Below the pieces are notes generated by a model that made no database searches, had not been told where the DNA came from, and saw only the letters and a list, made by a program, of their open reading frames with translations. 64,000 nt of DNA, taken from NCBI RefSeq assembly GCF_002854065.1, contig NZ_CP024147.1; one strand, given 5' to 3'. Source of the DNA: Escherichia coli (GTDB lineage: Bacteria > Pseudomonadota > Gammaproteobacteria > Enterobacterales > Enterobacteriaceae). A program made the translations under genes and the position numbers. Every line of letters begins with the position of its first letter. Position 1 is the stretch's first letter. Positions 12,001-55,674 of the stretch are shown in pieces.

Positions 12001-13338
12001 ATGCACTCTCAAATCTGGGTTGTGAGCACGCTGCTTATCAGCATCGTGTTAATTGTACTGACCATCGTGAAGTTCAAATTCCACCCGTTTCTGGCGCTGT
12101 TGCTGGCCAGCTTCTTCGTGGGAACGATGATGGGCATGGAGCCACTGGATATGGTAAATGCTATTGAAAGTGGAATTGGCGGAACGCTGGGGTTCCTTGC
12201 TGCGGTTATCGGCCTGGGCACGATACTGGGAAAAATGATGGAAGTATCCGGGGCCGCAGAAAGAATTGGTCTGACACTTCAACGCTGCCGCTGGCTTTCG
12301 GCTGATGTCATTATGGTGCTGGTTGGCCTGATTTGCGGCATCACGCTGTTTGTTGAAGTGGGCGTCGTGCTATTGATTCCTCTGGCTTTTTCAATTGCCA
12401 AAAAAACCAATACCTCATTGTTAAAGCTGGCTATTCCGCTGTGTACCGCATTGATGGCAGTGCACTGCGTGGTTCCCCCACATCCGGCTGCTTTATATGT
12501 TGCCAATAAGCTGGGCGCAGATATCGGTTCGGTGATCGTCTACGGTTTGCTGGTTGGGCTGATGGCATCACTGATCGGTGGCCCACTTTTCCTTAAATTT
12601 CTGGGTCAACGACTGCCCTTTAAACCTGTACCCACAGAGTTTGCCGATCTCAAAGTTCGCGATGAAAAAACACTACCGTCATTAGGAGCAACGTTATTGA
12701 CCATACTGCTACCCATTGCGCTGATGTTGGTGAAAACGATTGCCGAATTGAATATGGCGCGTGAGAGTGGTTTGTATATCTTGCTTGAGTTTATTGGCAA
12801 CCCTATCACTGCCATGTTTATCGCCGTGTTTGTCGCCTATTATGTGTTGGGTATACGCCAGCATATGAGCATGGGGACGATGCTCACACATACGGAAAAT
12901 GGCTTCGGTTCTATTGCTAATATTTTGCTGATTATCGGGGCCGGAGGCGCATTCAACGCCATTTTAAAAAACAGCAGTCTCGCTGATACGCTGGCAGTTA
13001 TTCTCTCCAATATGCATATGCACCCGATTCTTCTGGCCTGGTTAGTAGCTCTTATTCTGCATGCGGCAGTGGGCTCCGCTACCGTGGCAATGATGGGGGC
13101 AACGGCAATTGTTGCACCCATGCTGCCGCTGTATCCCGACATCAGCCCGGAAATTATTGCGATTGCTATCGGTTCAGGCGCGATTGGCTGCACGATCGTT
13201 ACGGACTCGCTTTTCTGGCTGGTGAAGCAATATTGCGGCGCTACGCTCAATGAAACATTTAAATACTATACGACAGCGACATTTATCGCTTCAGTCGTCG
13301 CTCTGGCGGGCACATTCCTGCTGTCATTTATCATCTAA
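12001..13338 (+). CDS. dsdX: D-serine/gluconate-family permease (GntP family)
   Basis: 445 aa polytopic membrane protein immediately upstream of dsdA. Confidence 0.9.
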
Positions 13339-13355
13339 GCGCAAAGAGACGTACT

Positions 13356-14684
13356 ATGGAAAACGCTAAAATGAACTCGCTCATCGCCCAGTATCCGTTG
13401 GTAAAGGATCTGGTTGCTCTTAAAGAAACCACCTGGTTTAATCCTGGCACGACCTCATTGGCTGAAGGTTTACCTTATGTTGGCCTGACCGAACAGGATG
13501 TTCAGGACGCCCATGCGCGCTTATCCCGTTTTGCACCCTATCTGGCAAAAGCATTTCCTGAAACTGCTGCCACTGGGGGGATTATTGAATCAGAACTGGT
13601 TGCCATTCCGGCTATGCAAAAACGGCTGGAAAAGGAATATCAACAACCGATCAGCGGGCAACTGTTACTGAAAAAAGATAGCCATTTGCCCATTTCCGGC
13701 TCCATAAAAGCACGCGGCGGGATTTATGAAGTCCTGGCACACGCAGAAAAACTGGCTCTGGAAGCGGGGTTGCTGACGCTTGATGATGACTACAGCAAAC
13801 TGCTTTCTCCGGAGTTTAAACAGTTCTTTAGCCAGTACAGCATTGCTGTGGGCTCAACCGGAAATCTGGGGTTATCAATCGGCATTATGAGCGCCCGCAT
13901 TGGCTTTAAGGTGACAGTGCATATGTCTGCTGATGCCCGGGCATGGAAAAAAGCGAAACTGCGCAGCCATGGCGTTACGGTCGTGGAATATGAGCAAGAT
14001 TATGGTGTTGCCGTCGAGGAAGGACGTAAAGCAGCGCAGTCTGACCCGAACTGTTTCTTTATTGATGACGAAAATTCCCGCACGTTGTTCCTTGGGTATT
14101 CCGTCGCTGGCCAGCGTCTTAAAGCGCAATTTGCCCAGCAAGGCCGTATCGTCGATGCTGATAACCCTCTGTTTGTCTATCTGCCGTGTGGTGTTGGCGG
14201 TGGTCCTGGTGGCGTCGCATTCGGGCTTAAACTGGCGTTTGGCGATCATGTTCACTGCTTTTTTGCCGAACCAACGCACTCCCCTTGTATGCTGTTAGGC
14301 ATCCATACAGGGTTACACGATCATATTTCTGTTCAGGATATTGGTATCGACAACCTTACCGCAGCGGATGGCCTTGCTGTTGGTCGCGCATCAGGCTTTG
14401 TCGGGCGGGCAATGGAGCGTCTGCTGGATGGCTTCTATACCCTTAGCGATCAAACCATGTATGACATGCTTGGCTGGCTGGCGCAGGAAGAAGGTATTCG
14501 TCTTGAACCTTCGGCACTGGCGGGTATGGCCGGACCTCAGCGCGTGTGTGCATCAGTAAGTTACCAACAGATGCACGGTTTCAGCGCAGAACAGCTGCGT
14601 AATGCCACTCATCTGGTGTGGGCGACGGGAGGTGGAATGGTGCCGGAAGAAGAGATGAATCAATATCTGGCAAAAGGCCGTTAA
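13356..14684 (+). CDS. dsdA: D-serine dehydratase (PLP-dependent)
   Basis: 442 aa with the PLP-lysine region ...SGSIKARGG.... Full-length, no disruption. Confidence 0.9.
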
Positions 14685-14791
14685 TAACGTTTCAACGCAG
14701 CATCGCCATCCTTTCCCTGGGTGAGCGATGCTGCCGATGGCGCAGACTTAAGATCCCCGGTCTTACCCGCTATAACCCCCTGCTTTTACCA

Positions 14792-16330
14792 TCACCCAAC
14801 GCCTTTCGCTGTAAACGGCGGTTTCGCAAACCAAACCAAAACCGTAAGTAAGATAAAAGCAATAGCCGCCATACGGAAAATCTCATTTGCAGAAATAGAA
14901 AGTGACTGCTGGGTTATTTCATTATTAATTTCATTAAGAACTCCTGAAAGCGAACCATAGTATTTATCCATAATTTGTGACGATGAATTAAACACGGGGT
15001 TAAATTGATCGATGGTTGCTGTCAACTGACTATGGTGTAACGATTCGCGTCGTCCCCACAGCGTCATTGTCAACGACGTACCAACGGATCCTGACAAGGT
15101 ACGAAAAAAATTACTCATACTCGAGGCATTGGCAAATTTATTATCTGGCAACCCTGAAAACGAAATCGTTGTTAAGGGTAAAAAGAAACAGGCAACGGCG
15201 AATCCCTGGAAAAACTGTGGCAAAATGATGCCTGTAAAATCAATCGTTGGCATAAATGTCACAGAACGCCAGTAATAGCAAACCGCATACATCAAAAAAC
15301 TAAATGTCACTAACAACCGCATGTCTATTTTGTTGCCATAACGTCCTATCAAAGGTGAAATTAATAGTGGCATGATGCCGATGGGCGCATAAGCAAGTCC
15401 GGCCCATATCGCATTATACCCCATCGTTTCCTGGAGTAACTGCGGCATAAGGACGATCGCTCCAGAGTAAAATAAATACGCGCATGTGATACTCACTATA
15501 CCAATGGTGAAGTTACGGGACTTAAACAAACTGAGATCAAGAATCGGGTTCTCTGAGGTCGACTCCCAAATGACTAAAGAGATCAGAGAAATAACTGATA
15601 CTACTGTTAATATTATTATTGTACTCGAGTTGAACCAATCCAGATCGCGCCCTTTATCAAGCATAATTTGCAAGCCACCAACACCGAGCACTAACAGGGT
15701 CAGTCCTGGTAGATTCATTTTGACCGGTGAAGTCTCAGTTTCTCTTCCTTTAAGTAAAGTTAAGCATAATGTCAGGACGATAATCCCCATAGGGACATTG
15801 ATTAAAAATATCCAACCCCAGCTAAAGTTATCACAAATATAACCGCCCAATATCGGCCCACATATCGGAGCGATAATCACGGTCATTGACCATAATGCCA
15901 GAGCAAATGTTCTTTTTTCTGGTGGATAATTCCTTAATAATAAACTCTGTGACAGTGGAATTAACGGCCCTGCCATTAACCCCTGAACGACTCTAAAAAA
16001 TATCAGCACATCAAGATTGGTCGATAAACTACACATTAAGGAAGACAGCGAAAAAAAAGTGACTGAAAGTAAAAATAACCTTAATTCGCCTATTCTTTGT
16101 GCCAGCCTGCCGGTAACAGGGATCGCAATGGCATTTGCTACGCCAAACGAGGTGATAACCCAGGTGCCTTCGTCTGTTGATGCTCCCAGAAAGCCAGATA
16201 TTGTCGGTATTGCGACGTTAGAAATAGTGGAATCCAACATTTGCATAAACGTCGCTAATGACAATGCAATAGTGACGCACCATAACGTCCCACCGGTTAA
16301 TGGTGCCGGAGTTGATTTAGTGATTGCCAT
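14792..16330 (-). CDS. emrY: MFS multidrug efflux transporter (EmrB paralog, 14 TMS)
   Basis: 512 aa hydrophobic MFS protein. Start overlaps the emrK stop. Confidence 0.9.
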   Translation of the reverse strand: MAITKSTPAPLTGGTLWCVTIALSLATFMQMLDSTISNVAIPTISGFLGASTDEGTWVITSFGVANAIAIPVTGRLAQRIGELRLFLLSVTFFSLSSLMCSLSTNLDVLIFFRVVQGLMAGPLIPLSQSLLLRNYPPEKRTFALALWSMTVIIAPICGPILGGYICDNFSWGWIFLINVPMGIIVLTLCLTLLKGRETETSPVKMNLPGLTLLVLGVGGLQIMLDKGRDLDWFNSSTIIILTVVSVISLISLVIWESTSENPILDLSLFKSRNFTIGIVSITCAYLFYSGAIVLMPQLLQETMGYNAIWAGLAYAPIGIMPLLISPLIGRYGNKIDMRLLVTFSFLMYAVCYYWRSVTFMPTIDFTGIILPQFFQGFAVACFFLPLTTISFSGLPDNKFANASSMSNFFRTLSGSVGTSLTMTLWGRRESLHHSQLTATIDQFNPVFNSSSQIMDKYYGSLSGVLNEINNEITQQSLSISANEIFRMAAIAFILLTVLVWFAKPPFTAKGVG

Positions 16331-17493
16331 TAAAGTTGTCCATTATGCGAAATAATGTTGCTAATTTCTTTTTCTATCGGACTGGTATCGATAACTAAAG
16401 CCTTACTGGTATAAGCCGGCATGGAGGTCACGGTTGAAGCCAGATCAGGCAGCTCAGCAATGTCTTCGTCCTTCGTATCAATAGTTGCAGTCATCGATAA
16501 ACCAATGCGCAAGGGGTGTTCCATGAGTTCTTTTGGATCAAGAGAAACTTCAACCGGTACACGCTGAACGATTTTGATCCAGTTCCCTGTCGCATTTTGT
16601 GCAGGTAATAAGGAGAACGCATTGCCGGTTCCCATATTGATCCCTGTCACCCGGCCATGAAACACAACATTCTCACCATAAAGATCGCTGATAATATTGA
16701 CCGATTGACCAATCCGTACATCCGTGAGTTGTGTTTCTTTAAAGTTAGCATTAACCCACATTTGACGTGCCGGTACGACAGCCATTAACGATTGTCCGGG
16801 ACTCACTGTTTCGCCGACCTGAACACTTCTCTGGGCAATATAGCCGGTAACCGGACTCTTAATATCCGTACGTTTAAGCGCCAACCAGGCTTCTTTGGTT
16901 GCATCCGCAGCTTCAACGACTTGTGGCTGACGGTTTAATGGTGTGTTCATTACTAAAGCTTTATTCGCTTTATAAGCCTGGATAGCGGCATTCAATGCCG
17001 CTTTGCTACTTATTAACGTATCTTTGGTATGCTCCAGCGTTTCTTTTGAAATAACCCCCTGCTTCGCTAAAGGCACACGACGGTTATAATCTTCTAAAGA
17101 TTGTTGATACTGAATACGTGCTGAAGCAACTTCGGCACTGTATTGTTTATCCTGTAAGTATAGTTTATTCGTTTGCCGAACAATATTTGCCAGATTATTT
17201 TTAGCTTTATTGAGTGCGATAGTGGCATCAGTTTTATCCAGTGAAACTAAAATGTCACCCTGTCGAACGTAGTTCGTATCTTTATGATTAACTACAGTGA
17301 CACTACCTGAGACTTGTGCAGAAATTGGATCTGCATTCCCCGTGACATAGGCGTCATCTGTACTAATCATGTCTTCTAATTCCATTGACCAATAGGCATA
17401 GGCACCTGAAAACGCAATAAATAAAACTACCGCCAATAAAGAAAAGTATTTTCTTCTGTTAGAATGTTTTTTATTTGAATTAATCTGTTCCAC
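16330..17493 (-). CDS. emrK: Membrane fusion (periplasmic adaptor) protein of the EmrKY efflux pump
   Basis: 387 aa with N-terminal TM anchor and coiled-coil/HlyD-like region, upstream of emrY. Confidence 0.9.
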   Translation of the reverse strand: MEQINSNKKHSNRRKYFSLLAVVLFIAFSGAYAYWSMELEDMISTDDAYVTGNADPISAQVSGSVTVVNHKDTNYVRQGDILVSLDKTDATIALNKAKNNLANIVRQTNKLYLQDKQYSAEVASARIQYQQSLEDYNRRVPLAKQGVISKETLEHTKDTLISSKAALNAAIQAYKANKALVMNTPLNRQPQVVEAADATKEAWLALKRTDIKSPVTGYIAQRSVQVGETVSPGQSLMAVVPARQMWVNANFKETQLTDVRIGQSVNIISDLYGENVVFHGRVTGINMGTGNAFSLLPAQNATGNWIKIVQRVPVEVSLDPKELMEHPLRIGLSMTATIDTKDEDIAELPDLASTVTSMPAYTSKALVIDTSPIEKEISNIISHNGQL

Positions 17494-17665
17494 TTTTATC
17501 TCTCATTTCGCATAGATGAAATTTATGAATTGAATGAAAAGAGTATTCATTCTTCATATCAAACACAGTGCATGTGTGCACATTATCCCAGGAACGTTGG
17601 AGGCCTAATTTAAATGAGGTGCAAAAAAAACAACAGAGGACTAAACCGTGGCTTTTGCAATACAA

Positions 17666-17683
17666 TTCTTACGCCTGTAGGAT
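17666..17683 (+). promoter_or_regulatory. Candidate EvgA box in the emrK-evgA divergent promoter region
   Basis: TTCTTACGCCTGTAGGAT, an imperfect inverted repeat resembling the EvgA consensus half-sites (TTCYTACA). Assigned from memory of the consensus. Confidence 0.35.
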
Positions 17684-17907
17684 TAGTGAGAAGACTTATA
17701 GTGCTAATGTGAAACTATAAATCATCGGTACAATCCCTGATTTTATTGTTGACATTTCATATATGCCGACTATTTATATGGTATACTTGTCGAATTATCT
17801 TAAAGGAAGCTCAAATTTTCTTATTTTTATTGAGAAAATGAGATGATGCCTTATGTCTGTATTACTACAGGGAGAAGGGAGATGCTTCATTGCAAAGGGA
17901 ATAATCT

Positions 17908-18522
17908 ATGAACGCAATAATTATTGATGACCATCCTCTTGCTATCGCAGCAATTCGTAATTTATTGATCAAAAACGATATTGAAATCTTAGCAGAGTTG
18001 ACTGAAGGCGGAAGTGCCGTTCAGCGGGTGGAAACACTTAAGCCTGATATCGTCATCATTGATGTCGATATCCCCGGAGTTAACGGTATCCAGGTGTTAG
18101 AAACGCTGAGGAAGCGCCAATATAGCGGAATTATTATTATCGTCTCCGCTAAAAATGACCATTTTTACGGGAAACATTGTGCTGATGCTGGCGCTAATGG
18201 TTTCGTGAGTAAAAAAGAAGGCATGAACAATATCATTGCGGCTATTGAAGCTGCAAAAAATGGCTACTGCTATTTCCCCTTCTCTCTCAACCGGTTTGTT
18301 GGAAGTTTAACGTCCGACCAGCAAAAACTCGACTCCTTATCGAAACAAGAAATTAGTGTCATGCGCTATATTCTTGATGGCAAGGATAATAATGACATTG
18401 CTGAAAAAATGTTCATCAGCAACAAAACTGTCAGCACGTATAAAAGTCGCCTGATGGAAAAATTAGAATGTAAATCACTGATGGATCTTTACACATTCGC
18501 ACAACGTAACAAAATCGGCTAA
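17908..18522 (+). CDS. evgA: Two-component response regulator (NarL/FixJ family)
   Basis: 204 aa with receiver domain (DD...D, K) and C-terminal LuxR-type HTH. Confidence 0.9.
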   Translation: MNAIIIDDHPLAIAAIRNLLIKNDIEILAELTEGGSAVQRVETLKPDIVIIDVDIPGVNGIQVLETLRKRQYSGIIIIVSAKNDHFYGKHCADAGANGFVSKKEGMNNIIAAIEAAKNGYCYFPFSLNRFVGSLTSDQQKLDSLSKQEISVMRYILDGKDNNDIAEKMFISNKTVSTYKSRLMEKLECKSLMDLYTFAQRNKIG

Positions 18523-18526
18523 CCAC

Positions 18527-21500
18527 ATGAAGTTTTTACCCTATATTTTTCTTCTCTGTTGTGGTCTTTGGTCGACCATAAGTTTCGCAGACGAAGATTA
18601 CATCGAATATCGTGGCATCAGTAGTAACAACCGTGTCACACTTGATCCACTACGTCTGAGCAACAAGGAATTACGTTGGTTAGCGAGCAAAAAAAATCTT
18701 GTGATTGCAGTACATAAGTCCCAAACGGCTACGTTGTTGCATACCGATTCGCAGCAACGGGTTCGTGGTATTAATGCTGATTATTTAAATCTTTTAAAAA
18801 GAGCGTTAAATATCAAATTAACACTCCGGGAATACGCCGATCACCAAAAAGCAATGGACGCGCTGGAAGAAGGTGAAGTCGATATAGTGTTATCACATTT
18901 AGTTGCTTCGCCGCCTCTTAATGATGACATTGCTGCAACCAAACCACTGATAATTACCTTTCCGGCGCTGGTCACCACCCTTCACGATTCAATGCGACCG
19001 CTTACCTCATCAAAACCAGTAAATATTGCTCGAGTAGCAAATTATCCCCCTGACGAGGTAATTCATCAATCATTTCCAAAAGCAACAATTATCTCTTTTA
19101 CAAATTTATATCAGGCATTAGCATCCGTCTCAGCCGGACAGAATGATTACTTTATTGGTAGTAACATCATTACCAGCAGTATGATTTCCCGCTATTTCAC
19201 TCACTCCTTAAATGTAGTGAAATATTATAACTCACCGCGTCAATATAATTTTTTCTTGACCAGAAAAGAATCTGTCGTTCTTAATGAAGTACTCAATCGA
19301 TTTGTTGATGCTTTGACAAATGAAGTTCGCTATGAAGTATCACAAAATTGGCTTGATACAGGAAACCTGGCCTTTCTGAACAAACCATTAGAACTCACTG
19401 AACATGAAAAACAGTGGATTAAGCAGCATCCCGATTTAAAGGTGCTGGAAAATCCTTACTCGCCCCCCTATTCTATGACGGATGAAAATGGCTCGGTTCG
19501 GGGCGTTATGGGGGACATTCTTAATATTATTACCTTGCAAACAGGTTTAAATTTTTCTCCGATCACCGTTTCACACAATATCCATGCTGGAACACAGCTG
19601 AATCCCGGCGGATGGGATATATTACCCGGTGCTATTTATAGTGAAGATAGAGAAAATAATGTTTTATTTGCTGAAGCCTTCATAACAACGCCTTACGTTT
19701 TTGTCATGCAAAAAGCGCCTGACAGTGAACAAACATTAAAAAAAGGAATGAAAGTTGCCATTCCATATTATTATGAGCTTCATTCGCAATTAAAAGAGAT
19801 GTATCCGGAGGTAGAGTGGATAAAAGTCGATAACGCCAGCGCTGCATTTCACAAGGTCAAGGAAGGCGAACTTGATGCTCTGGTCGCGACACAGTTAAAT
19901 TCACGTTACATGATCGACCATTACTATCCTAATGAACTTTATCATTTTCTTATTCCCGGCGTTCCGAATGCATCGCTTTCGTTCGCTTTTCCTCGCGGAG
20001 AACCGGAACTTAAGGATATTATTAATAAAGCACTGAATGCAATCCCCCCAAGCGAAGTTCTGCGCCTGACCGAAAAATGGATTAAAATGCCCAATGTGAC
20101 CATTGACACATGGGACCTCTATAGCGAGCAATTTTATATTGTTACGACATTATCCGTTTTATTAGTTGGCAGTAGCCTTTTATGGGGATTCTACCTGTTA
20201 CGCTCAGTTCGTCGTCGTAAAGTCATTCAGGGTGATTTAGAAAACCAAATATCATTCCGGAAAGCACTCTCGGATTCCTTACCGAATCCAACTTATGTTG
20301 TAAACTGGCAAGGTAATGTCATTAGTCATAATAGTGCTTTTGAACATTATTTCACTGCGGATTACTACAAAAATGCAATGTTACCATTAGAAAACAGTGA
20401 CTCCCCCTTTAAAGATGTTTTTTCTAATGCGCATGAAGTCACAGCAGAAACGAAAGAAAATCGAACAATATACACACAGGTATTTGAAATTGATAATGGC
20501 ATCGAGAAAAGATGCATTAATCACTGGCATACATTATGCAATCTGCCAGCCAGCGAACATGCTGTTTATATTTGTGGTTGGCAAGATATTACCGAGACGC
20601 GTGATTTAATTCATGCACTCGAAGTAGAGAGAAATAAAGCGATCAATGCAACTGTCGCAAAAAGCCAGTTTCTGGCAACAATGAGTCACGAAATAAGAAC
20701 ACCAATTAGCTCCATTATGGGCTTCCTGGAACTTCTGTCGGGTTCTGGTCTTAGCAAGGAGCAACGTGTGGAGGCGATTTCACTTGCCTACGCCACCGGA
20801 CAATCACTCCTCGGCTTAATTGGTGAAATCCTTGATGTCGACAAAATTGAATCGGGTAACTATCAACTTCAACCACAATGGGTCGATATTCCTACTTTAG
20901 TCCAGAACACTTGTCACTCTTTCGGTGCGATTGCTGCAAGCAAATCGATCGCATTAAGTTGCAGCAGTACGTTTCCTGAACATTACCTGGTTAAGATCGA
21001 CCCTCAGGCGTTTAAGCAGGTCTTATCAAATTTACTGAGTAATGCTCTCAAATTTACCACCGAGGGGGCAGTAAAAATTACGACCTCCCTGGTTCACATT
21101 GATGACAACCACGCTGTAATCAAAATGACGATTATGGATTCTGGAAGTGGATTATCACAGGAAGAACAACAACAACTGTTTAAACGTTATAGCCAAACAA
21201 GTGCAGGTCGTCAGCAAACAGGTTCTGGTTTAGGCTTAATGATCTGCAAAGAATTAATTAAAAACATGCAGGGTGATTTGTCATTAGAAAGTCATCCAGG
21301 CATAGGAACAACATTTACGATCACAATCCCGGTAGAAATTACCCAACAAGTGGCGGCTGTCGAGGCAAAAGCAGAACAACCTATCACACTACCTGAAAAG
21401 TTGAGCATATTAATCGCGGATGATCATCCGACCAACAGGCTATTACTCAAACGCCAGCTAAATCTATTAGGATATGATGTTGACGAAGCCACTGATGGTG

Positions 21501-22120
21501 TGCAAGCGCTACACAAAGTCAGTATGCAACATTATGATCTGCTTATTACTGACGTTAATATGCCGAATATGGATGGTTTTGAGTTGACTCGCAAACTCCG
21601 TGAGCAAAATTCGTCCTTACCCATCTGGGGGCTTACAGCCAACGCACAGGCTAACGAACGTGAAAAAGGGTTAAATTGCGGCATGAACTTATGTTTGTTC
21701 AAACCGTTGACCCTGGATGTACTGAAAACACATTTAAGTCAGTTACACCAGGTTGCGCATATTGCACCTCAGTATCGCCACCTTGATATCGAAGCCCTGA
21801 AAAATAATACGGCGAACGATCTACAACTGATGCAGGAGATTCTCATGACTTTCCAGCATGAAACGCATAAAGATCTACCCGCTGCGTTTCATGCACTAGA
21901 AGCTGGCGATAACAGAACTTTCCATCAATGTATTCATCGCATCCACGGTGCGGCTAACATCCTGAATTTGCAAAAGTTGATTAATATTAGCCATCAGTTA
22001 GAAATAACACCTGTTTCAGATGACAGTAAGCCTGAAATTCTTCAGTTGCTAAACTCTGTAAAAGAACACATTGCAGAGCTGGACCAGGAAATTGCTGTTT
22101 TCTGTCAGCAAAATGACTAA
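18527..22120 (+). CDS. evgS: Hybrid sensor histidine kinase (periplasmic tandem binding domains, HisKA/HATPase, receiver, HPt)
   Basis: 1197 aa with signal/TM, H-box (ATMSHEIRTPISSIMGF), receiver (ILIADDHPTNR...) and C-terminal HPt. Confidence 0.9.
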   Translation: MKFLPYIFLLCCGLWSTISFADEDYIEYRGISSNNRVTLDPLRLSNKELRWLASKKNLVIAVHKSQTATLLHTDSQQRVRGINADYLNLLKRALNIKLTLREYADHQKAMDALEEGEVDIVLSHLVASPPLNDDIAATKPLIITFPALVTTLHDSMRPLTSSKPVNIARVANYPPDEVIHQSFPKATIISFTNLYQALASVSAGQNDYFIGSNIITSSMISRYFTHSLNVVKYYNSPRQYNFFLTRKESVVLNEVLNRFVDALTNEVRYEVSQNWLDTGNLAFLNKPLELTEHEKQWIKQHPDLKVLENPYSPPYSMTDENGSVRGVMGDILNIITLQTGLNFSPITVSHNIHAGTQLNPGGWDILPGAIYSEDRENNVLFAEAFITTPYVFVMQKAPDSEQTLKKGMKVAIPYYYELHSQLKEMYPEVEWIKVDNASAAFHKVKEGELDALVATQLNSRYMIDHYYPNELYHFLIPGVPNASLSFAFPRGEPELKDIINKALNAIPPSEVLRLTEKWIKMPNVTIDTWDLYSEQFYIVTTLSVLLVGSSLLWGFYLLRSVRRRKVIQGDLENQISFRKALSDSLPNPTYVVNWQGNVISHNSAFEHYFTADYYKNAMLPLENSDSPFKDVFSNAHEVTAETKENRTIYTQVFEIDNGIEKRCINHWHTLCNLPASEHAVYICGWQDITETRDLIHALEVERNKAINATVAKSQFLATMSHEIRTPISSIMGFLELLSGSGLSKEQRVEAISLAYATGQSLLGLIGEILDVDKIESGNYQLQPQWVDIPTLVQNTCHSFGAIAASKSIALSCSSTFPEHYLVKIDPQAFKQVLSNLLSNALKFTTEGAVKITTSLVHIDDNHAVIKMTIMDSGSGLSQEEQQQLFKRYSQTSAGRQQTGSGLGLMICKELIKNMQGDLSLESHPGIGTTFTITIPVEITQQVAAVEAKAEQPITLPEKLSILIADDHPTNRLLLKRQLNLLGYDVDEATDGVQALHKVSMQHYDLLITDVNMPNMDGFELTRKLREQNSSLPIWGLTANAQANEREKGLNCGMNLCLFKPLTLDVLKTHLSQLHQVAHIAPQYRHLDIEALKNNTANDLQLMQEILMTFQHETHKDLPAAFHALEAGDNRTFHQCIHRIHGAANILNLQKLINISHQLEITPVSDDSKPEILQLLNSVKEHIAELDQEIAVFCQQND

Positions 22121-22160
22121 ATAGCGGCTCCCACAATGTTCAAATGTGGGAGCTATTTAC
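22121..22160 (+). terminator. Hairpin between convergent evgS and yfdE (candidate bidirectional terminator)
   Basis: Inverted repeat GCTCCCACA ... TGTGGGAGC directly after the evgS stop. Confidence 0.4.
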
Positions 22161-22175
22161 CAGCACATCTTACAT

Positions 22176-23321
22176 TTATGATGAGAACTCCTGGCGAATT
22201 TGCTCCCCATGCTGGTCGAGCGTTGCCGCTCCCGGCATAACATGCGGGTCCGCGCAGCCACTGATTTTTATCGGATTACCCGGCATCATTATTCCCCCGG
22301 CTTCAATCAACATATTTCTCGCCTGAGTTTGTGGCAAATTAATGGCCTCAGCCACACTTAATAACGGCGCGACGGGCACACCAACTTCATGTATTCTGGC
22401 TAACCAAACTTCAGCTGCCTGTGTTTTTAACGTCCGCTCAATATATTGTTTAAGAATAGCCTGGTTTTGTACGCGTAAAATATTGCTGCTAAATCTGGGA
22501 TCATTAACCAGTTCCGTAAGCTCCAGTGCCTGGCATAACGCAGAGAAAAGCTTGTCATTACCACAACAAATCGTAATCGGCTTATCCTGAGTATCGAAAA
22601 CATCAAAAGGTGCCATGTAGGGGTGGCGATTTCCCAAACGTTGTGGTGACTTCCCAGTCGCGATATATGCCATCAGCCCGTGCTCCAGAAAACTCAGCGT
22701 GGCATCAAACATCGCTATATCGACATGCGCCCCTCTCTGGCTCTTTTCGCGGCCATAAAGTGCACTCACTATTCCACTGAATAAATAGACACCGCCACAT
22801 AGATCCGCAAGAGAAGTACCAACGCGCACTGGCGGAGCATCAGGGTATCCCGTTTCCATCATTATCCCGCTCATTGCCTGAATGATGGTATCGTAGGCAG
22901 GAGCATCTTTTAGCGGACCGGTATGTCCGAAACCTGACGATGAAGCATATATGAGGCGCGGGTTGATTTCTTGTAACCTTTCCCATGAAAACCCCAGTTT
23001 TTCCATTGTACCTGGGCGAAAATTCTCAGCTAATACATCAGCTTGTTTAAGCATATTTATAAATATACTTTTATCGTGATCATTCTTTAAATCAAGAACC
23101 ACACTCTCTTTACCATGATTAATAAAACTGTAATAGAGTGACTGTCCATCCACATAGGGACCAAATGTGCGGGTATCATCACCATGACCTGGTGGCTCAA
23201 CTTTAATTACCCTTGCGCCCATATTACAAAGAAGTTGAGTTCCGAAAGGTCCATTAAGGACATGTGTCATATCGATAACTAATAAGCCTTCAAACGGCCC
23301 TTTGCTTTCATTATTTGTCAT
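22176..23321 (-). CDS. yfdE: CoA-transferase family III protein (acetyl-CoA:oxalate CoA-transferase)
   Basis: 381 aa from ATG at 23321 (MTNNESKGPFEGLLVIDMTHVLNGPFG...). Paralogous to frc. The ORF-track start at 23360 is an extension. Confidence 0.85.
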   Translation of the reverse strand: MTNNESKGPFEGLLVIDMTHVLNGPFGTQLLCNMGARVIKVEPPGHGDDTRTFGPYVDGQSLYYSFINHGKESVVLDLKNDHDKSIFINMLKQADVLAENFRPGTMEKLGFSWERLQEINPRLIYASSSGFGHTGPLKDAPAYDTIIQAMSGIMMETGYPDAPPVRVGTSLADLCGGVYLFSGIVSALYGREKSQRGAHVDIAMFDATLSFLEHGLMAYIATGKSPQRLGNRHPYMAPFDVFDTQDKPITICCGNDKLFSALCQALELTELVNDPRFSSNILRVQNQAILKQYIERTLKTQAAEVWLARIHEVGVPVAPLLSVAEAINLPQTQARNMLIEAGGIMMPGNPIKISGCADPHVMPGAATLDQHGEQIRQEFSS

Positions 23322-23394
23322 TTGCTTATGCCTTGAAAAAAGCCGAAGGTGAAAAGACACTTCGGCATTTATGTAAAATCAATAACATGATTAA

Positions 23395-24339
23395 TTATGA
23401 AACCAGTCGACTGACATAAATCCACAAGGGAGCCGTGACGACAAAGCCCAGTACGCTCACAGCCAATGACGCTGTACCAGTGCGGGTGTAGACATTAAAC
23501 CGGCTGGCAATAATGATTCCGGAGAATGCCGGCGGTAATGCGCCTGCCAGTACCATCATCTGCAAATGTTCGCTGTTCAAATGACATGCCATACCAACGA
23601 GAAGCAGCGCCAGTGGCATCAGAATCAGCTTCAGGAAGGTGTTATAAGCAATTTCGGCACTGAACTCGAATTTATGTGCAGCCAGAGTCAACCCCGCAGC
23701 GAATACCGCTACCCCTGAGTTAGCCTTCGCAATCAGATTAAAGGTTGGGTCCCATGCTGCCGGAATTTTTACCCCAACCAACACCAGGATCGTTGCCAGA
23801 ACAGGTGCCCATACTACTGGCTCCTTTGCCGCAGAAATTAATGCGCTCAGATTACTATTCTTCTTACCATCCGCTCCTGAGGAAGGATTCAGCAAATACA
23901 GACCAATAGGAATAGTAATTGCGTTAACAATAATAGAAATAATTGCTACCACTAAACCTGTTGATACGGAATCACCATAAATAGGATCGAGAACTGCAAA
24001 TCCCAGGAATCCAATAGTAGGTGAACCTGCAATTAATGCACATACAGCTGCTTCTGCATGAGTGCGTTTAAAAAATTTGTAGCAACCGAACCAGGAGAAA
24101 AAGAAACATCCGACAATAACCACAAGTGATACAAGGGTCAGACGAGTGTCCGCAAAAATCATTTCCCTGTTTGCCCGGGTAATAGATACAAATAGGGCTG
24201 CAGGAAGCGCGTAGTTTAATACCAGTTTATTAAATGCCCGAGCTTGATCTTCTGAAAAAGTTTCTCGTCTGCCGCTAAAATAACCCAACAGCATGATTAC
24301 GATAATAGGCAATAAATCGCCAATAAAAAATGTTAGCAT
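23395..24339 (-). CDS. yfdV: Auxin-efflux-carrier-family membrane transporter
   Basis: 314 aa polytopic membrane protein between oxc and yfdE. Confidence 0.85.
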
Positions 24340-24408
24340 AATAGTATTTCCGATAAGGGTCCCCTCACCATCGCATAATGAGTTGGCAAGAGGAGACGAT
24401 GTCAGTAT

Positions 24409-26103
24409 TTAATTACCAGCGACTTGTTTTGGGTTAAGTTTGGTAATATGGCCACTTTCAGTTCCTGCTGCTGGGTCGATTACCACATTAATAATGGTCG
24501 GTTTGCGCGACTGAATACCGGTGGTTAAAGCATGACGAAGTTCATCTGTCGTGGTGACGTTATAGCCAACGCCACGAAACGCATCCATTAATTTGTCATA
24601 CCTTGCATGGTGCAACAGATCTGTTGGTGATGGTGCACCAGCGCCACTGAGATCAACACCGTCTCCTCTGTAGATGCCGCCATTATTAAAAATAACGATC
24701 GTCACCGGCAGGTTATATCGACAAATTGTTTCAATCTCCATCCCACTGAAACCAAAAGCACTATCACCTTCAATGGCGACAACCGGAGAACCAGAGGTCA
24801 CGCTAGCACCGATGGCATAGCCCATACCGATGCCCATGACACCCCAGGTACCACAATCCAGACGACGACGTGGTTTATACATATCAATAATATTTCGTGC
24901 ATTATCCAGGGTATTTGCCCCTTCATTTACTAAATAAATATCCTGGTTCTCGCGCAATACATCGCGCACAGCACTTAATGCATTAAAGTAATTTAATGGT
25001 TGGGTATCTGTACTCAATTTTTCATGCATTTTTTGTGCATTTTGCTGCTTGTGGATATTTAAAATATCGCGCCATACCAGTGGAGTCGTAAATGTGTTTT
25101 GTTTCAGTTCTGCCAGCATACCTTGCATACTGGATGCAATATCGCCAACGACTGGCACAGCAATGGGGCGGTTGCTGTCAATTTCCTGCGGTTCAATATC
25201 CAGTTGAATAAACTGTGTATCTGCCGCCCATCCTTTTTTACCGTGTGCCAGTAACCAATTCAGTCGTGCACCAACAAGCATGACAACGTCAGCATTTGCC
25301 AGGGCAAACGAACGCGCAGCTGCCGCAGAAAGTGGATGCGTATCTTCGAGGATCCCTTTCGCCATAGACATTGGCAGGAATGGAATCTGGGCACTTTCAA
25401 TAAATTCACGAAGCTGTTCATCAGCTTGTGAATACGCCGCGCCTTTGCCAAGGATAACTAATGGTCGTTCAGCTTTTGCTAAAAGCGAAATTGCGCTAGC
25501 GACTGACTTCGGGCATGGCAATAATGCTGGCGACGGATTTTCAACTTTTACAATCGTGGTTAACGCTTCGTCTTTTTCCATCGTCGCGGCCAGGACATTT
25601 GCTGGCAAATCAAGATAAACTCCGCCAGGGCGACCCGATACTGAGACCCGGATAGCGCGTGCCAATGCAATGCCAAGATCCTGCGGCTGATTAACGCGAA
25701 ATGCTGCTTTGGCATACGGTTTTGCCGCATTCATTTGGTCCAGCTCTTCATAATCACCTTGCTGTAGGTCGACGATCGCGCGGTCGCTGGAGCCGCTAAT
25801 CATGATCATCGGAAAACCATTTACCGTTGCGTTGGCCAATGCGGTCAAACCATTGAGGAATCCTGGCGCAGACACTGTCAGGCAGATCCCCGGTTTTTGG
25901 GTAAGAAAACCGCTTGCCGCAGCGGCATAGCCTGCCGACTGCTCATGACGAAAACCAATATAACGAATGCCTTCCGCCTGGGCATGGCGTGCCATATCCG
26001 TCACAGGAATACCTACAACACCATAAATAGTGTCAATATTATTCTGTTTTAATGCTTCAACGATGATATGCATACCATCTGTCATTTGAAGTTGATCTGA
26101 CAT
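24409..26103 (-). CDS. oxc: Oxalyl-CoA decarboxylase (ThDP-dependent)
   Basis: 564 aa with a ThDP-binding fold (..GDSAFGFSGMEIETICRYNLP..). Confidence 0.9.
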   Translation of the reverse strand: MSDQLQMTDGMHIIVEALKQNNIDTIYGVVGIPVTDMARHAQAEGIRYIGFRHEQSAGYAAAASGFLTQKPGICLTVSAPGFLNGLTALANATVNGFPMIMISGSSDRAIVDLQQGDYEELDQMNAAKPYAKAAFRVNQPQDLGIALARAIRVSVSGRPGGVYLDLPANVLAATMEKDEALTTIVKVENPSPALLPCPKSVASAISLLAKAERPLVILGKGAAYSQADEQLREFIESAQIPFLPMSMAKGILEDTHPLSAAAARSFALANADVVMLVGARLNWLLAHGKKGWAADTQFIQLDIEPQEIDSNRPIAVPVVGDIASSMQGMLAELKQNTFTTPLVWRDILNIHKQQNAQKMHEKLSTDTQPLNYFNALSAVRDVLRENQDIYLVNEGANTLDNARNIIDMYKPRRRLDCGTWGVMGIGMGYAIGASVTSGSPVVAIEGDSAFGFSGMEIETICRYNLPVTIVIFNNGGIYRGDGVDLSGAGAPSPTDLLHHARYDKLMDAFRGVGYNVTTTDELRHALTTGIQSRKPTIINVVIDPAAGTESGHITKLNPKQVAGN

Positions 26104-26156
26104 GATTAATAACCTCGAAATTTTTATAAATTGGGAGCCAGAAGCTCCCGTTAATA

Positions 26157-27407
26157 TCAGATGGCGTGGTTTTGCTTCATTGCAGCAATTTCATCGTCGC
26201 TATAACCCAGCTCCCGCAATACCGCAGCGGTATGTTCACCTAATAGTGGCGCAGCTTTAATATCTGGCGTAAAGGCAGAGAATTTCATTGGACAACCAAC
26301 TGTCAGATATTTTCCACGCAACGGTTGTTCCACTTCGACAACACTGCCACTTTGGCGTAAAGAGGGATCAAGTGAAATTTCTTTCATACTTAAAACCGGT
26401 GCACAAGGAATATCAAACTGAGTCAAATAAGCCACTGCTTCATGTTTATCAATAGTGACAGTGTATTTTTCGATTTCAGCAAAAATATCGAAAATATGTG
26501 GCTGTCGGGCATGGGCTGTACTGTATGCCGGATCGGTAATCCATTCTGGTTTGCCGATGGCTTTACAGGTGTTTTCCCAGTTTTGCTCCTGAATAGTGAA
26601 ATAAATATAGGCGTTAGGATCTGTTTCCCAGCCTTTACATTTCAGGATCCATCCAGGCTGACCGCCACCACCCGCATTACCTCCGCGGGGAACTGCATCA
26701 CCAAATGTACCATTCGGATACTGCGGGTATTCTTCCAGATAACCCAATTTATCGAGACGCTGCTGGTCGCGTAATTTCACGCGGCAAAGGTTCAATACGG
26801 CATCCTGCATTGACATGGTGACTCGTTGCCCACGCCCCGTTTTTTCGCGATGCAGCAAAGCAGCAAGTAAACCGATCAGCAAATGCATTCCGGTGTTGCT
26901 GTCTCCTAACGCTGCAGCGCTTACCAGCGGCGGACCGTCCCAAAAACCCGTAGTGGATGCCGCGCCACCCGCTGCCTGAGCAACGTTTTCATAGGCTTTT
27001 ACATTCACATAAGGCGAACACTCATCAAACCCTTTGATCGAACCAAAAATCAGACGTGGATTGATTTCTTGAATATGCTCCCAGGTGAAACCCATGTGAT
27101 CAATGGCCCCTGGATGAAAGTTCTCGACTAAGATATCAGCTTCGCGGATCAGCTTTTCCATTACCTCTTTGCCTTCCGCTGTTTTGGTATTTAACTCAAT
27201 AGAACGTTTGTTACTGTTAAGCATGGTGAAGTAAAGCGCATCGATATCAGGAATATCTCGCAGCTGGTGACGCGTTACGTCACCAACGCCGGGGCGTTCA
27301 ATTTTAATGACGTCAGCGCCAAACCAGGCCAGCATTTGAGTACAAGATGGGCCAGATTGCACACCGGTGAAATCGAGAACTTTAATTCCTTGAAGTGGAG
27401 TTGACAT
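26157..27407 (-). CDS. frc: Formyl-CoA:oxalate CoA-transferase
   Basis: 416 aa family III CoA-transferase ([40 protein letters not shown]...). Confidence 0.9.
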
Positions 27408-27919
27408 AGCAATACCTATTAGTTAATTAAATATGTGTTAATTTAGCGTTTATTTAAGGCATAACGCCCTCTATAAATAATCCGCAAAATATCGTCGTAG
27501 CGGCACTCGATATTTTTAAATTCCCGTATCAAGTGCTGAAAATCATTTCATCGCCACTTCCAATTCCTTTCCGCATGGTAAGTAGTGAGGACGAAAAGAA
27601 GAATATGATAAATATTGGCTCGCGGTAATCAGAGAGAGCCGCGACATTTGTGATGTTATTCTTACAACTGTAAGAAGCGCCGGTGATTTACAAGCAAGGG
27701 TATGATTACGCTTTTTAAAGCGTACCATAAAACATAACATAATAAATGATTTGTGATGACACGGGATTATTGCGGTTTACTTTGAGGAATATAAAATGCG
27801 AGTTTATAGAACCGCGAGCGCCAAATAATTTTATGACCACAACCTGTCGTATTGTGGTCATAAAAAATTGTCGGCTGGAGGGAGTTAAATCCTTTACCTC
27901 AATATACTGCCTGTCAGCA

Positions 27920-28552
27920 TTAGTTCACAAACAGTGCTTCGCTATCGACGATGATTCCATCTTCCGCACCTTTAAGCGCCAGGTTTGCCTCGTAGTATTG
28001 CTTTTTATCAAGCAGTTTCTGCGCATCAGCAAGTGCATTACGAGTCTGTTTAAGCGGCATCAGATATTGGTTTTCCATTACACCAACACCGGCCAGGCGA
28101 AGCTCTTCCATTGCGCCCTTTTTATCCCCTTTCGCCATTTTTTCATTGGCAATTTTTATCGCGGCTTCTTTTTCGGGTGTTGCTACATAACTCTCAGAAA
28201 TTCCGACAGATGCATTAATGACAATATATTGGTCATCATTGAGATTGGTCTTTTTACCTGGCTTAGCGAACTTTGCCCATTCGGTACTGTCATCTGACAA
28301 CAAAGCGGAAGCTTCATTGGTCAGTTCTTTTGCCTTTTCCGGATCGCCATGAAACAGAGCCAGGCGCGCTACCTGCACGTCACGCATCGCATATAAACCT
28401 TGTTCAGAGATACGCTCTGCTGCTGCCGTTTTCTGGGTTTGCTGAACTTGCTGAGTTTGCTGTTGTGCCGCTACCGGTGCATTATCAGCAGCCCATACAG
28501 TTGAAGATGCCAGAATAGCTGTGACCATCGTAGCCATAATTAAACGTTTCAT
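27920..28552 (-). CDS. yfdX: Periplasmic YfdX-family protein (EvgA-regulated)
   Basis: 210 aa with signal peptide ([26 protein letters not shown]). Confidence 0.85.
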
Positions 28553-28847
28553 ACTTACCTCATTCTTTAACAGTTTTAGAAAACGCCGCCATCATATTGG
28601 GTGAGCATGAAATGAGAAATCAGAGAGCAACGGTCATTTTGAAAGGGTTATCTTACACTTGTAGTTATTACCGCAAGAAGTATTTTAGTCTTACAGTTGT
28701 AGGAATCTGCTTCCTGTCACAGAGAACTATTCTTATATACCACAAAGAGATGTCATTTATTATATCGATGTAAATACTGATTAATTATATGTAAATACAG
28801 CCATAACGTCGTAGGTTTTCAGTGAACCATTTTCAGGATAACTTTCT

Positions 28848-29123
28848 ATGAAAGTAAACTTAATGCTTTTTAGCTTATTTTTATTGGTCTCTATTATGGC
28901 ATGCAATGTTTTTGCATTTTCTATTTCTGGTGGTGGTAGTGAGGCGAGCTATAAAGAGACGGAAAAAACGTCAGCGATGACGACAACTCACTCTACAAAA
29001 TTTCAGCCATCACAGGCGATTTTGTTAAAAATGAGAGAAGATGCGCCACCATTAAACCTCACAGAAGAAATTCCGCCCCCTTTTCCGACAAAGGCGAATT
29101 ATCTTATTCATCCTGTGCGATAG
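28848..29123 (+). CDS. ypdI: Small secreted/lipoprotein-like protein
   Basis: 91 aa with N-terminal signal sequence and Cys (MKVNLMLFSLFLLVSIMACN...). Confidence 0.7.
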   Translation: MKVNLMLFSLFLLVSIMACNVFAFSISGGGSEASYKETEKTSAMTTTHSTKFQPSQAILLKMREDAPPLNLTEEIPPPFPTKANYLIHPVR

Positions 29124-29199
29124 CGTCTGTCACATGGCAGGTGAACAATCATGTCTGATGCTGATGTGAACACCTGCCCAAATGAGCCATCCTGACCCG

Positions 29200-29442
29200 C
29201 TATCGCCTGCCATACCCCACCATAAAGCGAATCATCAAGCCACAAGCCGGGGCAAGAAACATAAATATCCCCGTCACCAGTTCATTACCGCCAGTTAACC
29301 ACATGGTGAAGTAATAAATGAGTGCAGCGAGGATCACCATGCCGAAGAAAGAAGAGACCGCCGATACCACGTTCAGTACCTGACCGATGTAGCCGCTTAC
29401 GCAGACAATACACAGGGCGAGAAACATCCATAAATAAATCAT
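29200..29442 (-). CDS. yfdY: Small inner-membrane protein (DUF2545)
   Basis: 80 aa, two hydrophobic helices. Confidence 0.7.
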   Translation of the reverse strand: MIYLWMFLALCIVCVSGYIGQVLNVVSAVSSFFGMVILAALIYYFTMWLTGGNELVTGIFMFLAPACGLMIRFMVGYGRR

Positions 29443-29794
29443 AGCTCAACCTCCTGCCGCGCTAAAAAACCTGTAACTTCAGTCACTTTAATAGTAAGAC
29501 AATCCTTAACCTCTGGCAATTTTTGCTAAGCATCAATGAAAACAGCATGTTAAATGCAAGACTGTTGTGTACGGAAAAATATTTACTTTGCACGATTAAT
29601 AATCAGTAGCTGAAAGCAGTCAGCGAGTGATAAAGTACAGATACCGCATTCATGCTCCTCGTGGTTATGTCCTGACTAGTCTTTACACTCTTTACAGGAA
29701 CCATTGTCGTACATGATGGCCTAATCAATTGAGTGTACCGCTGTCGACATGGAATCTTCTGCGATACAACAATTCGTATCTACAGAAGGTAACT

Positions 29795-30715
29795 ATGTTT
29801 CCACAATGCAAATTTTCCCGCGAGTTTATGCATCCTCGCTACTGGCTCACATGGTTTGGGCTTGGTGTACTCTGGCTTTGGGTACAGCTTCCTTATCCTG
29901 TTCTCTGCTTTCTCGGCACGCGTATTGGCGCAATGGCGCGACCATTCCTGAAACGGCGTGAATCTATCGCCCGTAAAAACCTGGAACTTTGCTTCCCGCA
30001 GCATTCTGCGGAAGAACGCGAGAAGATGATTGCCGAAAACTTTCGTTCACTCGGCATGGCGTTGGTAGAAACCGGCATGGCGTGGTTCTGGCCAGACAGT
30101 CGCGTACGTAAATGGTTTGATGTTGAAGGGCTGGATAACCTTAAACGCGCACAAATGCAAAATCGCGGCGTAATGGTTGTCGGCGTCCATTTTATGTCGC
30201 TGGAACTGGGCGGCCGCGTGATGGGACTTTGTCAGCCAATGATGGCTACCTATCGTCCACATAATAATCAGCTGATGGAATGGGTGCAGACCCGTGGTCG
30301 CATGCGCTCTAACAAAGCGATGATCGGCAGAAATAATCTGCGCGGCATTGTCAGTGCACTGAAGAAAGGTGAAGCGGTATGGTTTGCTCCCGATCAGGAT
30401 TATGGTCGTAAAGGCAGCTCCTTCGCGCCGTTCTTTGCGGTAGAAAATGTCGCCACAACCAATGGCACCTATGTTCTCTCCCGTCTCTCTGGCGCAGCCA
30501 TGTTGACCGTAACGATGGTAAGAAAAGAGGATTACAGCGGATATCGTTTGTTCATCACCCCAGAGATGGAAGGCTACCCGGCAGATGAAAATCAAGCCGC
30601 TGCCTATATGAACAAGATTATCGAGAAAGAGATCATGCGCGCACCGGAGCAGTACCTCTGGATCCACCGTCGCTTTAAAACGCGCCCGGTGGGAGAATCG
30701 TCGTTATACATTTAA
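29795..30715 (+). CDS. lpxP: Lipid A palmitoleoyl acyltransferase (cold-induced LpxL paralog)
   Basis: 306 aa from ATG at 29795 (MFPQCKFSREFMHPRYWLTWFGLGVLWLWVQLPYP...). The ORF-track start at 29729 is an extension. Confidence 0.9.
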   Translation: MFPQCKFSREFMHPRYWLTWFGLGVLWLWVQLPYPVLCFLGTRIGAMARPFLKRRESIARKNLELCFPQHSAEEREKMIAENFRSLGMALVETGMAWFWPDSRVRKWFDVEGLDNLKRAQMQNRGVMVVGVHFMSLELGGRVMGLCQPMMATYRPHNNQLMEWVQTRGRMRSNKAMIGRNNLRGIVSALKKGEAVWFAPDQDYGRKGSSFAPFFAVENVATTNGTYVLSRLSGAAMLTVTMVRKEDYSGYRLFITPEMEGYPADENQAAAYMNKIIEKEIMRAPEQYLWIHRRFKTRPVGESSLYI

Positions 30716-50841: not shown

Positions 50842-50917
<76 letters not shown>

Positions 50918-50956
50918 ACGATGCGTTTACGTACCAAATTTGCTGGGTGCAAAATT

Positions 50957-51032
<76 letters not shown>

Positions 51033-53254: not shown

Positions 53255-53261
53255 AGGCCAA

Positions 53262-55478: not shown

Positions 55479-55554
55479 GGGTGATTAGCTCAGCTGGGAG
55501 AGCACCTCCCTTACAAGGAGGGGGTCGGCGGTTCGATCCCGTCATCACCCACCA
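55479..55554 (+). tRNA. valU: tRNA-Val (anticodon UAC)
   Basis: GGGTGATTAGCTCAGCTGGGAGAGCACCTCCCTTACAAGGAGGGGGTCGGCGGTTCGATCCCGTCATCACCCACCA (76 nt). Confidence 0.9.
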
Positions 55555-55598
55555 ACTGCTTTATGTAGTCTCCGCCGTGTAGCAAGAAATTGAGAAGT

Positions 55599-55674
55599 GG
55601 GTGATTAGCTCAGCTGGGAGAGCACCTCCCTTACAAGGAGGGGGTCGGCGGTTCGATCCCGTCATCACCCACCA
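55599..55674 (+). tRNA. valX: tRNA-Val (anticodon UAC), copy 2
   Basis: Identical 76-nt sequence. Confidence 0.9.

Follow-up and report, generated by a model that had tools for sequence, protein, structure and literature searches.

EvgS of Escherichia coli, a hybrid kinase of the membrane, combines two Venus-flytrap domains in the periplasm with a PAS domain in the cytoplasm and a phosphorelay that runs through His721, Asp1009 and His1137. In the established scheme, mild acidity (pH about 5.5-5.7) together with alkali metals under oxidising conditions switches EvgS on, leading to phosphorylation of EvgA. The Bordetella pair BvgS/BvgA has the same architecture (two Venus-flytrap domains, PAS, kinase, receiver and HPt domains) and a NarL/FixJ-type partner; the two sensors are about 29% identical in sequence (PMC5573083), whereas their signals and regulons differ, with virulence under BvgS/BvgA and acid and efflux functions under EvgS/EvgA. 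Here we describe the emrY-emrK / evgA-evgS / yfdE-yfdV-oxc-frc / yfdX locus at positions 14792-28552 of a stretch of 64,000 nucleotides (hereafter, the window) from E. coli contig NZ_CP024147.1 (assembly GCF_002854065.1).

We conclude, with a probability of about 0.93, that this locus is a standard, functional-looking core of the E. coli EvgS/EvgA regulon. The system is already known and is found here in its ordinary state, and nothing contradicts the standard reading; its initial annotation as known biology of low interest is borne out, as this is a textbook E. coli acid-response locus. From the sequence we infer that the EvgA sites are bound and the sensor is acid-responsive in the window strain. 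The value of the analysis is a coordinate-level annotation of nine genes, the leader gene evgL, four candidate EvgA boxes, predicted CsrA sites and three hairpins.

Identity and integrity of the locus

The locus was identified from the list of open reading frames and from a megablast search of 5,426 complete E. coli genomes, 5384 of which contain the cluster at a coverage of no less than 80%. Identity of at least 99% over the cluster is reached by only 25 of the 5447 matching records. Positions 10740-30150 of the window align with K-12 at 98.2% nucleotide identity with three gaps over 19.4 kb. The RefSeq annotations of K-12 MG1655 (b2367-b2375, with evgL as b4781) and of a 99.9%-identical genome list these nine genes as well, with order and orientation unchanged.

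In the gene-by-gene comparison with K-12, the start and stop codons of all nine genes coincide, no internal stops occur, and all lengths agree with the sole exception of YfdX (210 amino acids versus 211). Amino acid identity to K-12 across the nine proteins is 98.2-100%: EmrY, EvgA and YfdV are identical, EmrK, YfdE, Oxc and Frc have one to three substitutions each, and EvgS has 21. YfdX lacks A43 of an alanine run owing to an in-frame deletion, and this loss is harmless. The missing alanine (codon 43, the 28424-28426 region) belongs to an AAAA run after the signal sequence; two other genomes carry the same 210-residue YfdX (WP_000825604.1) in their annotation, and 210 positions is also the length of the NCBIfam YfdX profile.

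The dN/dS ratio relative to K-12 is 0-0.10 for every gene, so that all of them are under purifying selection in this comparison; the value for evgS, 0.078, agrees with the published estimate of about 0.1. The NCBIfam equivalog models for EvgA, EvgS, YfdE, YfdV, Oxc, Frc and YfdX are matched over the full length and well above their curated cut-offs, and the Pfam domain architectures of the cluster proteins are as expected. Thus the initial description of emrKY, evgAS, yfdE-yfdV-oxc-frc and yfdX as full-length genes is confirmed by the K-12 alignment, with exact coordinates. It had also excluded decay of the oxalate-degradation genes and had named frameshifts against reference proteins as the finding that would overturn it; relative to K-12, all nine genes are free of frameshifts, truncations and premature stops.

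Candidate EvgA-binding sites

The genes safA and ydeP, located elsewhere on the chromosome, are classical direct targets of EvgA. We take the EvgA consensus to be TTCYTACANNTGTARGAA, of the form TTCYTACA-NN-TGTARGAA (attributed to Masuda & Church 2003); in K-12 this pattern has matches upstream of safA (one mismatch) and ydeP (two mismatches). The consensus scan of the window yielded four matches with three mismatches or fewer, versus an expectation of 0.51; in 100 shuffles of the sequence, this number was never reached. All four matches fall within the three promoter-bearing spacers of the cluster (1.2 kb).

The site at 17666-17683 in the emrK-evgA spacer, TTCTTACGCCTGTAGGAT, lies upstream of emrK, 181 bp from its start codon, and has two mismatches to the consensus. 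An external matrix was symmetrised and built solely from the sites that precede safA and ydeP in K-12; among 63,983 positions it places the four boxes of the window at ranks 1-4. The 17666 box is second with 19.7 bits, the best background position having 11.8 bits, and leave-one-out matrices lead to a similar result. The 18-mer is base for base that of K-12 at the orthologous position. The emrK promoter is directly regulated by EvgA and is used as a direct EvgA reporter (PMC5706723). The site is thus a strong candidate for the EvgA box of emrKY, predicted from its consensus match. The initial annotation had placed an 18-bp EvgA-like inverted repeat at exactly these coordinates and proposed a scan with the EvgA matrix; the site passed both the consensus and the matrix scans. 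The "inverted repeat" label stands only in part, for the site matches the EvgA consensus but is a poor palindrome, self-complementary at 10 of the 18 positions. Likewise, this was the only EvgA box listed, and three further ones were overlooked.

One of these is a perfect consensus box, TTCTTACAACTGTAAGAA, at 27659-27676, 260 bp upstream of frc; it has no mismatches, is self-complementary at 16 of the 18 positions, is identical in K-12 and is top-scoring in every matrix scan. The other two, found by both consensus and matrix scans, precede yfdX at 28650-28667 (three mismatches) and 28688-28705 (one mismatch), that is, 106 and 144 bp upstream of the gene, with their centres 38 bp apart; they differ from K-12 only at the first base of the unconstrained central NN. 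The three additional boxes agree with the report that EvgA-binding inverted repeats precede yfdX and yfdWUVE (PMC3720670). Further, the emrK and yfdX promoters are directly activated by EvgA, and the latter has served as a direct reporter of EvgA~P (PMC5706723). Hence all four boxes lie upstream of genes for which direct EvgA control is stated in these two papers. A terminator-like hairpin with a 15-bp stem, found by the terminator scan just downstream of yfdX (27829-27865, minus strand) and identical in K-12, separates yfdX from the frc box, as would be expected if the two genes belong to different transcription units.

In the proposed scheme, phospho-EvgA, a NarL/FixJ-type dimer, would bind the four 18-bp sites, as suggested by the sequence matches. 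Binding upstream of emrK would switch on the EmrKY-TolC efflux pump, and binding at the perfect box would switch on frc-oxc-yfdV-yfdE, the products of which could carry out oxalyl-CoA decarboxylation, providing proton-consuming, oxalate-dependent acid tolerance. The two boxes upstream of yfdX are likewise predicted to be sites for phospho-EvgA. For evgA-evgS, transcription would start at an extended -10 promoter, at a distance of about 119 bp from the emrK box, with evgA translation dependent on evgL and repressed by CsrA at four GGA motifs.

The emrK-evgA spacer and the evgA leader

The divergent regulatory spacer between emrK and evgA (17494-17907) is 414 bp long, versus 415 bp in K-12, and is 97.3% identical to its K-12 counterpart. 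Its boundaries in the initial annotation are exact, but the leader open reading frame evgL was overlooked. Compared with K-12, one base pair is missing at 17576/17577, upstream of emrK or in its leader, from the loop of the small hairpin GTGCA-TGTG-TGCAC (17568-17581). Among 12 alleles the deletion is shared only with strain 100416, the B2 alleles having another loop variant.

The predicted evgA core promoter (17779-17794, plus strand) consists of a putative extended -10 element, TGgTATACT at 17779-17787, assigned by reading the sequence, and a transcription start at 17794 mapped from K-12. The K-12 evgA leader has been defined as the region from -114 to +7 relative to the ATG, with the evgL start codon at leader positions 89-91 (PMC11210196), and both definitions lead to a transcription start at 17794 here. 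The resulting 5' leader (17794-17907, plus strand) is 114 nt long and contains GGA motifs, predicted to be CsrA sites, at 17805, 17871, 17878 and 17898 (leader positions +12, +78, +85 and +105). Four such motifs are described in the K-12 evgA leader (PMC11210196; PMC11052181), and both their count and their layout match; the two bases of the leader that differ from K-12 are outside the GGA motifs. The nine-codon frame evgL (17882-17911, plus strand; MLHCKGNNL*) has a stop codon that overlaps the evgA ATG (ATGA); the K-12 annotation includes evgL at the corresponding position, and translational coupling of evgL and evgA has been shown (PMC11210196). The four EvgA boxes, evgL, the four GGA motifs of the leader and the three hairpins all have K-12 counterparts at orthologous positions.

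On the emrK side, a simple sigma-70 scan gave one minus-strand match, which lies upstream of the 17666 box. The sequence TGGGATAAT, on the minus strand at 17590-17582, was noticed as a possible extended -10 element for emrK and is an unsupported candidate. Rfam and tRNA scans of the interval 14792-28552 found nothing.

The EvgS allele

We compared the EvgS allele of the window with 11 other alleles. Every one of the 21 residues at which it departs from K-12 also occurs in another strain, and it retains L152, H226, P522, F577, S600, C671, C683, H721, D1009 and H1137, the relay residues H721, D1009 and H1137 being present in all the comparison alleles as well. Residues L152, H226 and P522 are needed for induction, C671 and C683 for redox control, and mutations of F577 and S600 result in constitutive EvgS (PMC5573083, PMC8174306, PMC5706723). 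The EvgS proteins of O157:H7 (phylogroup E) and of B2 strains likewise have 1197 residues and keep the relay and sensor-critical residues.

At 20 of the 21 positions the window residue is that of three alleles that are 38-41 substitutions from K-12, one of them from an ST131 strain; this is the distance given for B2 alleles (PMC5706723). Such sharing means that, for the most part, the divergent lineage is that of K-12, A and B1. Of the 21 differences, the window allele also has 19 in common with the O157:H7 allele, from which it is only eight residues away (I251V, E625D, T635A, D818E, I939T, V1015M, V1080A and N1197D). The O157:H7 allele itself differs from K-12 at 26 of 1197 residues, and its identity of 97.83% equals the figure listed for EDL933. 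The distance to the ST131 (B2) allele is 22 residues. The nearest evgAS sequences outside its own lineage are those of O55:H7 and O157:H7 (98.9%). One substitution, G856V, was considered as a defect of the kinase (ATPase) domain and rejected: V856 is found in O157:H7, O111 and others, G856 being the K-12 and B2 state.

Alternative explanations

Several points weigh against the interpretation given above. The EvgA consensus was cross-validated only empirically. The 17666 18-mer is unchanged in 12 of 12 aligned E. coli alleles (including K-12, O157:H7, O111 and ST131), which is weak evidence, as 7.4% of the spacer columns are variable and the chance of invariance is about 0.25. In the DNA immediately downstream of the box, the simple sigma-70 scan gave nothing on the minus strand that convinces as a promoter, and the sequence does not place the emrK start; the downstream acid-resistance partners safA-ydeO, ydeP and gadE are located outside the window. 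Finally, 119.5 bp separate the centre of the box from the mapped evgA start downstream of it, a long way for evgA to be activated directly, so that "divergent promoter", as the region was first labelled, may overstate the role of the site in evgA expression. One alternative, that the 18-mer is a chance resemblance in AT-rich DNA and binds no protein, we consider very improbable. It could draw on the low self-complementarity of the site, on its going unreported in a generic inverted-repeat search of the emrK-evgA spacer, and on a conservation among the 12 alleles that is not significant alone; yet chance would hardly place four matches, a number that no shuffle attained, exclusively in promoter spacers beside known EvgA-activated genes, nor rank this one second by an independent two-site matrix, 8 bits over the best background, and the sequence is shared with K-12, where the emrK promoter is the standard direct EvgA reporter. 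A search for the exact 18-mer in species-representative genomes gave four matches (Polynucleobacter, Pseudobdellovibrio and Bacteroidetes) with about nine expected by chance, and no Escherichia records despite the presence of the 18-mer in every E. coli allele read; in the megablast search of the 5,426 genomes with a 48-bp query around the box, two flanking polymorphic sites fall inside the query, which keeps conservation of the box itself from being singled out. Much closer to an even chance, though still below it, is that the box serves emrKY only, with an extended -10 promoter of evgAS itself driving essentially constitutive transcription and most of the control being post-transcriptional, through evgL coupling and CsrA. 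In addition to the distance, this is suggested by the presence of a single full box in the spacer, where no further paired half-sites were found, by strong EvgA dependence of emrK during macrophage infection by Shigella with no significant change in evgA expression (PMC6393483), and by the documented post-transcriptional control of evgA (PMC11210196; PMC11052181). On the other hand, activation from about -120 is unusual yet possible, and positive autoregulation of evgAS has reportedly been described (Tanabe et al. 1998). The 17666 box is best seen as the activator site of emrKY; it may serve evgA as well.

The other alternative concerns the sensor. The initial annotation was right in that the reading frames are intact, but it took integrity for function, and in reporter assays most B2 strains prove to have an EvgS that is full length yet acid-blind, a defect that is spread over EvgS and could not be mapped to one domain or to single residues (Roggiani et al. 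2017, PMC5706723). An intact evgS frame is therefore no guarantee of acid responsiveness. The cluster could be intact but signal-blind, with EvgS expressed and catalytically competent but unresponsive to mild acidity, and the regulon silent under classical induction. The acid-blind alleles are 96.6-96.7% identical to K-12 (PMC5706723), and the match of 20 of the 21 changed positions to alleles at a B2-type distance from K-12 points in the same direction. We nevertheless regard this as unlikely: the window EvgS is eight residues from the O157:H7 allele, and the strains outside B2 in that study were all acid-inducible, 8- to 60-fold (PMC5706723); it has none of the 22 further substitutions of the ST131 allele; L152, H226 and P522 are kept; and the sole histidine change, H205Q, belongs to a class of His-to-Gln replacements tolerated in the first Venus-flytrap domain (PMC5573083), if H205 lies in that domain, as we assume. 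There is a similarly small chance that the EvgS allele of this rarely sampled lineage differs from K-12 in its acid response, in degree or in kind, which is left open by the small number of records with at least 99% identity (25 of 5447) and by the distances of 21 residues from K-12 and eight from O157:H7. A conserved sensor would then have been rewired in nature once more, as in the B2 strains. The allele occurs together with the lineage-specific 1-bp deletion in the emrK leader hairpin. The standard reading, with an acid-responsive EvgS, remains the one that we prefer.

Genes of the cluster

The emrY gene (14792-16330, minus strand), annotated under this name in RefSeq genomes, encodes a DHA2-type MFS efflux permease of 512 amino acids, in which the MFS_1 domain spans residues 23-418 and TIGR00711 is matched with 572 bits (cut-off 230). 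It overlaps by one base, at 16330, with emrK (16330-17493, minus strand; GTG start as in K-12), which encodes the 387-residue periplasmic adaptor of the EmrKY-TolC pump; this protein is 99.2% identical to that of K-12 (three substitutions) and matches the EmrA/EmrK subfamily model TIGR00998 with 487 bits (cut-off 391). Both proteins score below the EmrB- and EmrA-specific cut-offs, as paralogs should. EmrKY thus has the features of an EmrAB-type tripartite pump, namely a DHA2 MFS permease and an HlyD-family adaptor encoded by overlapping genes of one operon, with the TolC partner encoded outside the window.

The response regulator gene evgA (17908-18522, plus strand) encodes a NarL/FixJ-type protein of 204 amino acids, identical to that of K-12 and to EvgA of every genome compared (WP_000991370.1). 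It consists of Response_reg (4-114) and GerE (142-198) Pfam domains, matches the equivalog NF007419 with 438 bits (cut-off 251) and aligns over residues 1-204 with the full-length structures PDB 5F64 and 8ZWN. The evgS gene (18527-22120, plus strand) encodes an unorthodox hybrid histidine kinase of 1197 amino acids with two SBP_bac_3 domains, HisKA (711-777), HATPase_c (825-937), Response_reg (961-1070) and Hpt (1104-1186), that is, the BvgS-type domain order; the PAS domain gave no Pfam match at E <= 1e-3. The equivalog NF007420 is matched over 1-1197 of 1197 positions with 2897 bits (cut-off 1995), and the periplasmic BvgS structure 4Q0C aligns over residues 43-538 of EvgS (E = 2e-48). A 219-bp piece of evgS (about 18951-19169, 98% identical) is also found on E. 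coli plasmids, with 25 plasmid places in the evgAS search. In the one inspected, NZ_CP100957.1, a partial "histidine kinase" lies between a Tn3-bla remnant and IS1; this looks like a chromosomal scrap captured by insertion sequence (IS) activity.

The oxalate module frc-oxc-yfdV-yfdE is complete, with the Frc, Oxc, YfdV and YfdE models covered over the whole profile; Frc and YfdE are CoA-transferases of class III, and the decarboxylase Oxc depends on TPP. The yfdE gene (22176-23321, minus strand) encodes acetyl-CoA:oxalate CoA-transferase, a function established in PMC3720670; the protein has 381 amino acids, is 99.2% identical to that of K-12 and matches its equivalog model over 1-381 of 381 positions with 885 bits (cut-off 522). 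A start at GTG 23360, present in the mechanical list of open reading frames, was dropped in favor of ATG 23321 on the basis of the K-12 and RefSeq start and of the NCBIfam match. The yfdV gene (23395-24339, minus strand) encodes a Mem_trans (AEC family) transporter of 314 amino acids (714 bits versus a cut-off of 404). The oxc (yfdU) gene (24409-26103, minus strand) encodes oxalyl-CoA decarboxylase (564 amino acids, 99.6% identical to K-12), with three of three TPP domains in Pfam and an equivalog score of 1067 bits (cut-off 557), and frc (yfdW; 26157-27407, minus strand) encodes formyl-CoA:oxalate CoA-transferase (416 amino acids, 99.8% identical to K-12), which matches TIGR03253 with 784 bits (cut-off 504). 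Finally, yfdX (27920-28552, minus strand) encodes a periplasmic YfdX-family protein of 210 amino acids with the YfdX Pfam domain (376 bits versus an equivalog cut-off of 256).

Base composition and intergenic hairpins

The intergenic regions of the cluster were initially described as AT-rich. This holds for the promoter-bearing spacers, emrK-evgA (33.8% GC), frc-yfdX (37.5%) and yfdX-ypdI (34.2%), but not for dsdA-emrY (55.1%) and evgS-yfdE (43.6%). The remark also understates the trend, since the entire island is GC-poor (42.9% versus 49.8% in the rest of the window).

The two remaining hairpins lie between convergent genes. The one between dsdA and emrY (14697-14734) is GC-rich, with 10-bp arms GCAGCATCGC/GCGATGCTGC that are 100% complementary, in a spacer 97% identical to K-12; it is probably a shared terminator. 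The one between evgS and yfdE (22127-22153), with perfect 9-bp arms GCTCCCACA/TGTGGGAGC in a spacer 100% identical to K-12, is a probable bidirectional terminator, although the simple terminator scan did not flag it, as it has no T-run.

The closest genome and additional observations

The closest sequenced genome, CUWW06 (NZ_CP182139.1), is 100% identical over 14792-28552 apart from an IS1 element; elsewhere in the window, each segment of roughly 10-20 kb has one to four mismatches. This IS1 interrupts the frc-yfdX spacer at a point flanked by the terminator hairpin of yfdX and the frc box, and a second one is found upstream of dsdC; the window has neither insertion. The 9-bp target duplications of the two elements correspond to window positions 27799-27807 and 10754-10762, respectively. 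The window can therefore be used as an uninterrupted reference for the frc-yfdX spacer of its nearest relative.

Homology with K-12 does not start before 10740, the counterpart of the point at which the K-12 prophage CPS-53 ends: whereas K-12 has this prophage upstream of dsdC, the window (1-10740) has a different, IS-rich island. By the annotation of the collinear CUWW06 genome, this island includes a 1165-residue autotransporter frame (961-4458), pieces of IS2, IS30 and IS911, and genes for a JAB-domain (RadC-like) protein, a DUF987 protein and a YeeU-family antitoxin.

Between yfeD and gltX, an IS200/IS605-type element occupies 52046-53804, and CUWW06 has the same element. It contains a minus-strand frame for a 402-residue InsQ/TnpB protein of the RNA-guided endonuclease family and a second frame that is annotated as a truncated tnpA in the collinear CUWW06 record. 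We know of no such element between yfeD and gltX in K-12. There are also two clusters of tRNA genes, two tRNA-Ala(GGC) at 50842-51032, and three tRNA-Val(UAC) with one tRNA-Lys(UUU) at 55479-55876. They show nothing unusual: the same genes are at collinear positions in CUWW06, and the arrangement is presumably shared by K-12.

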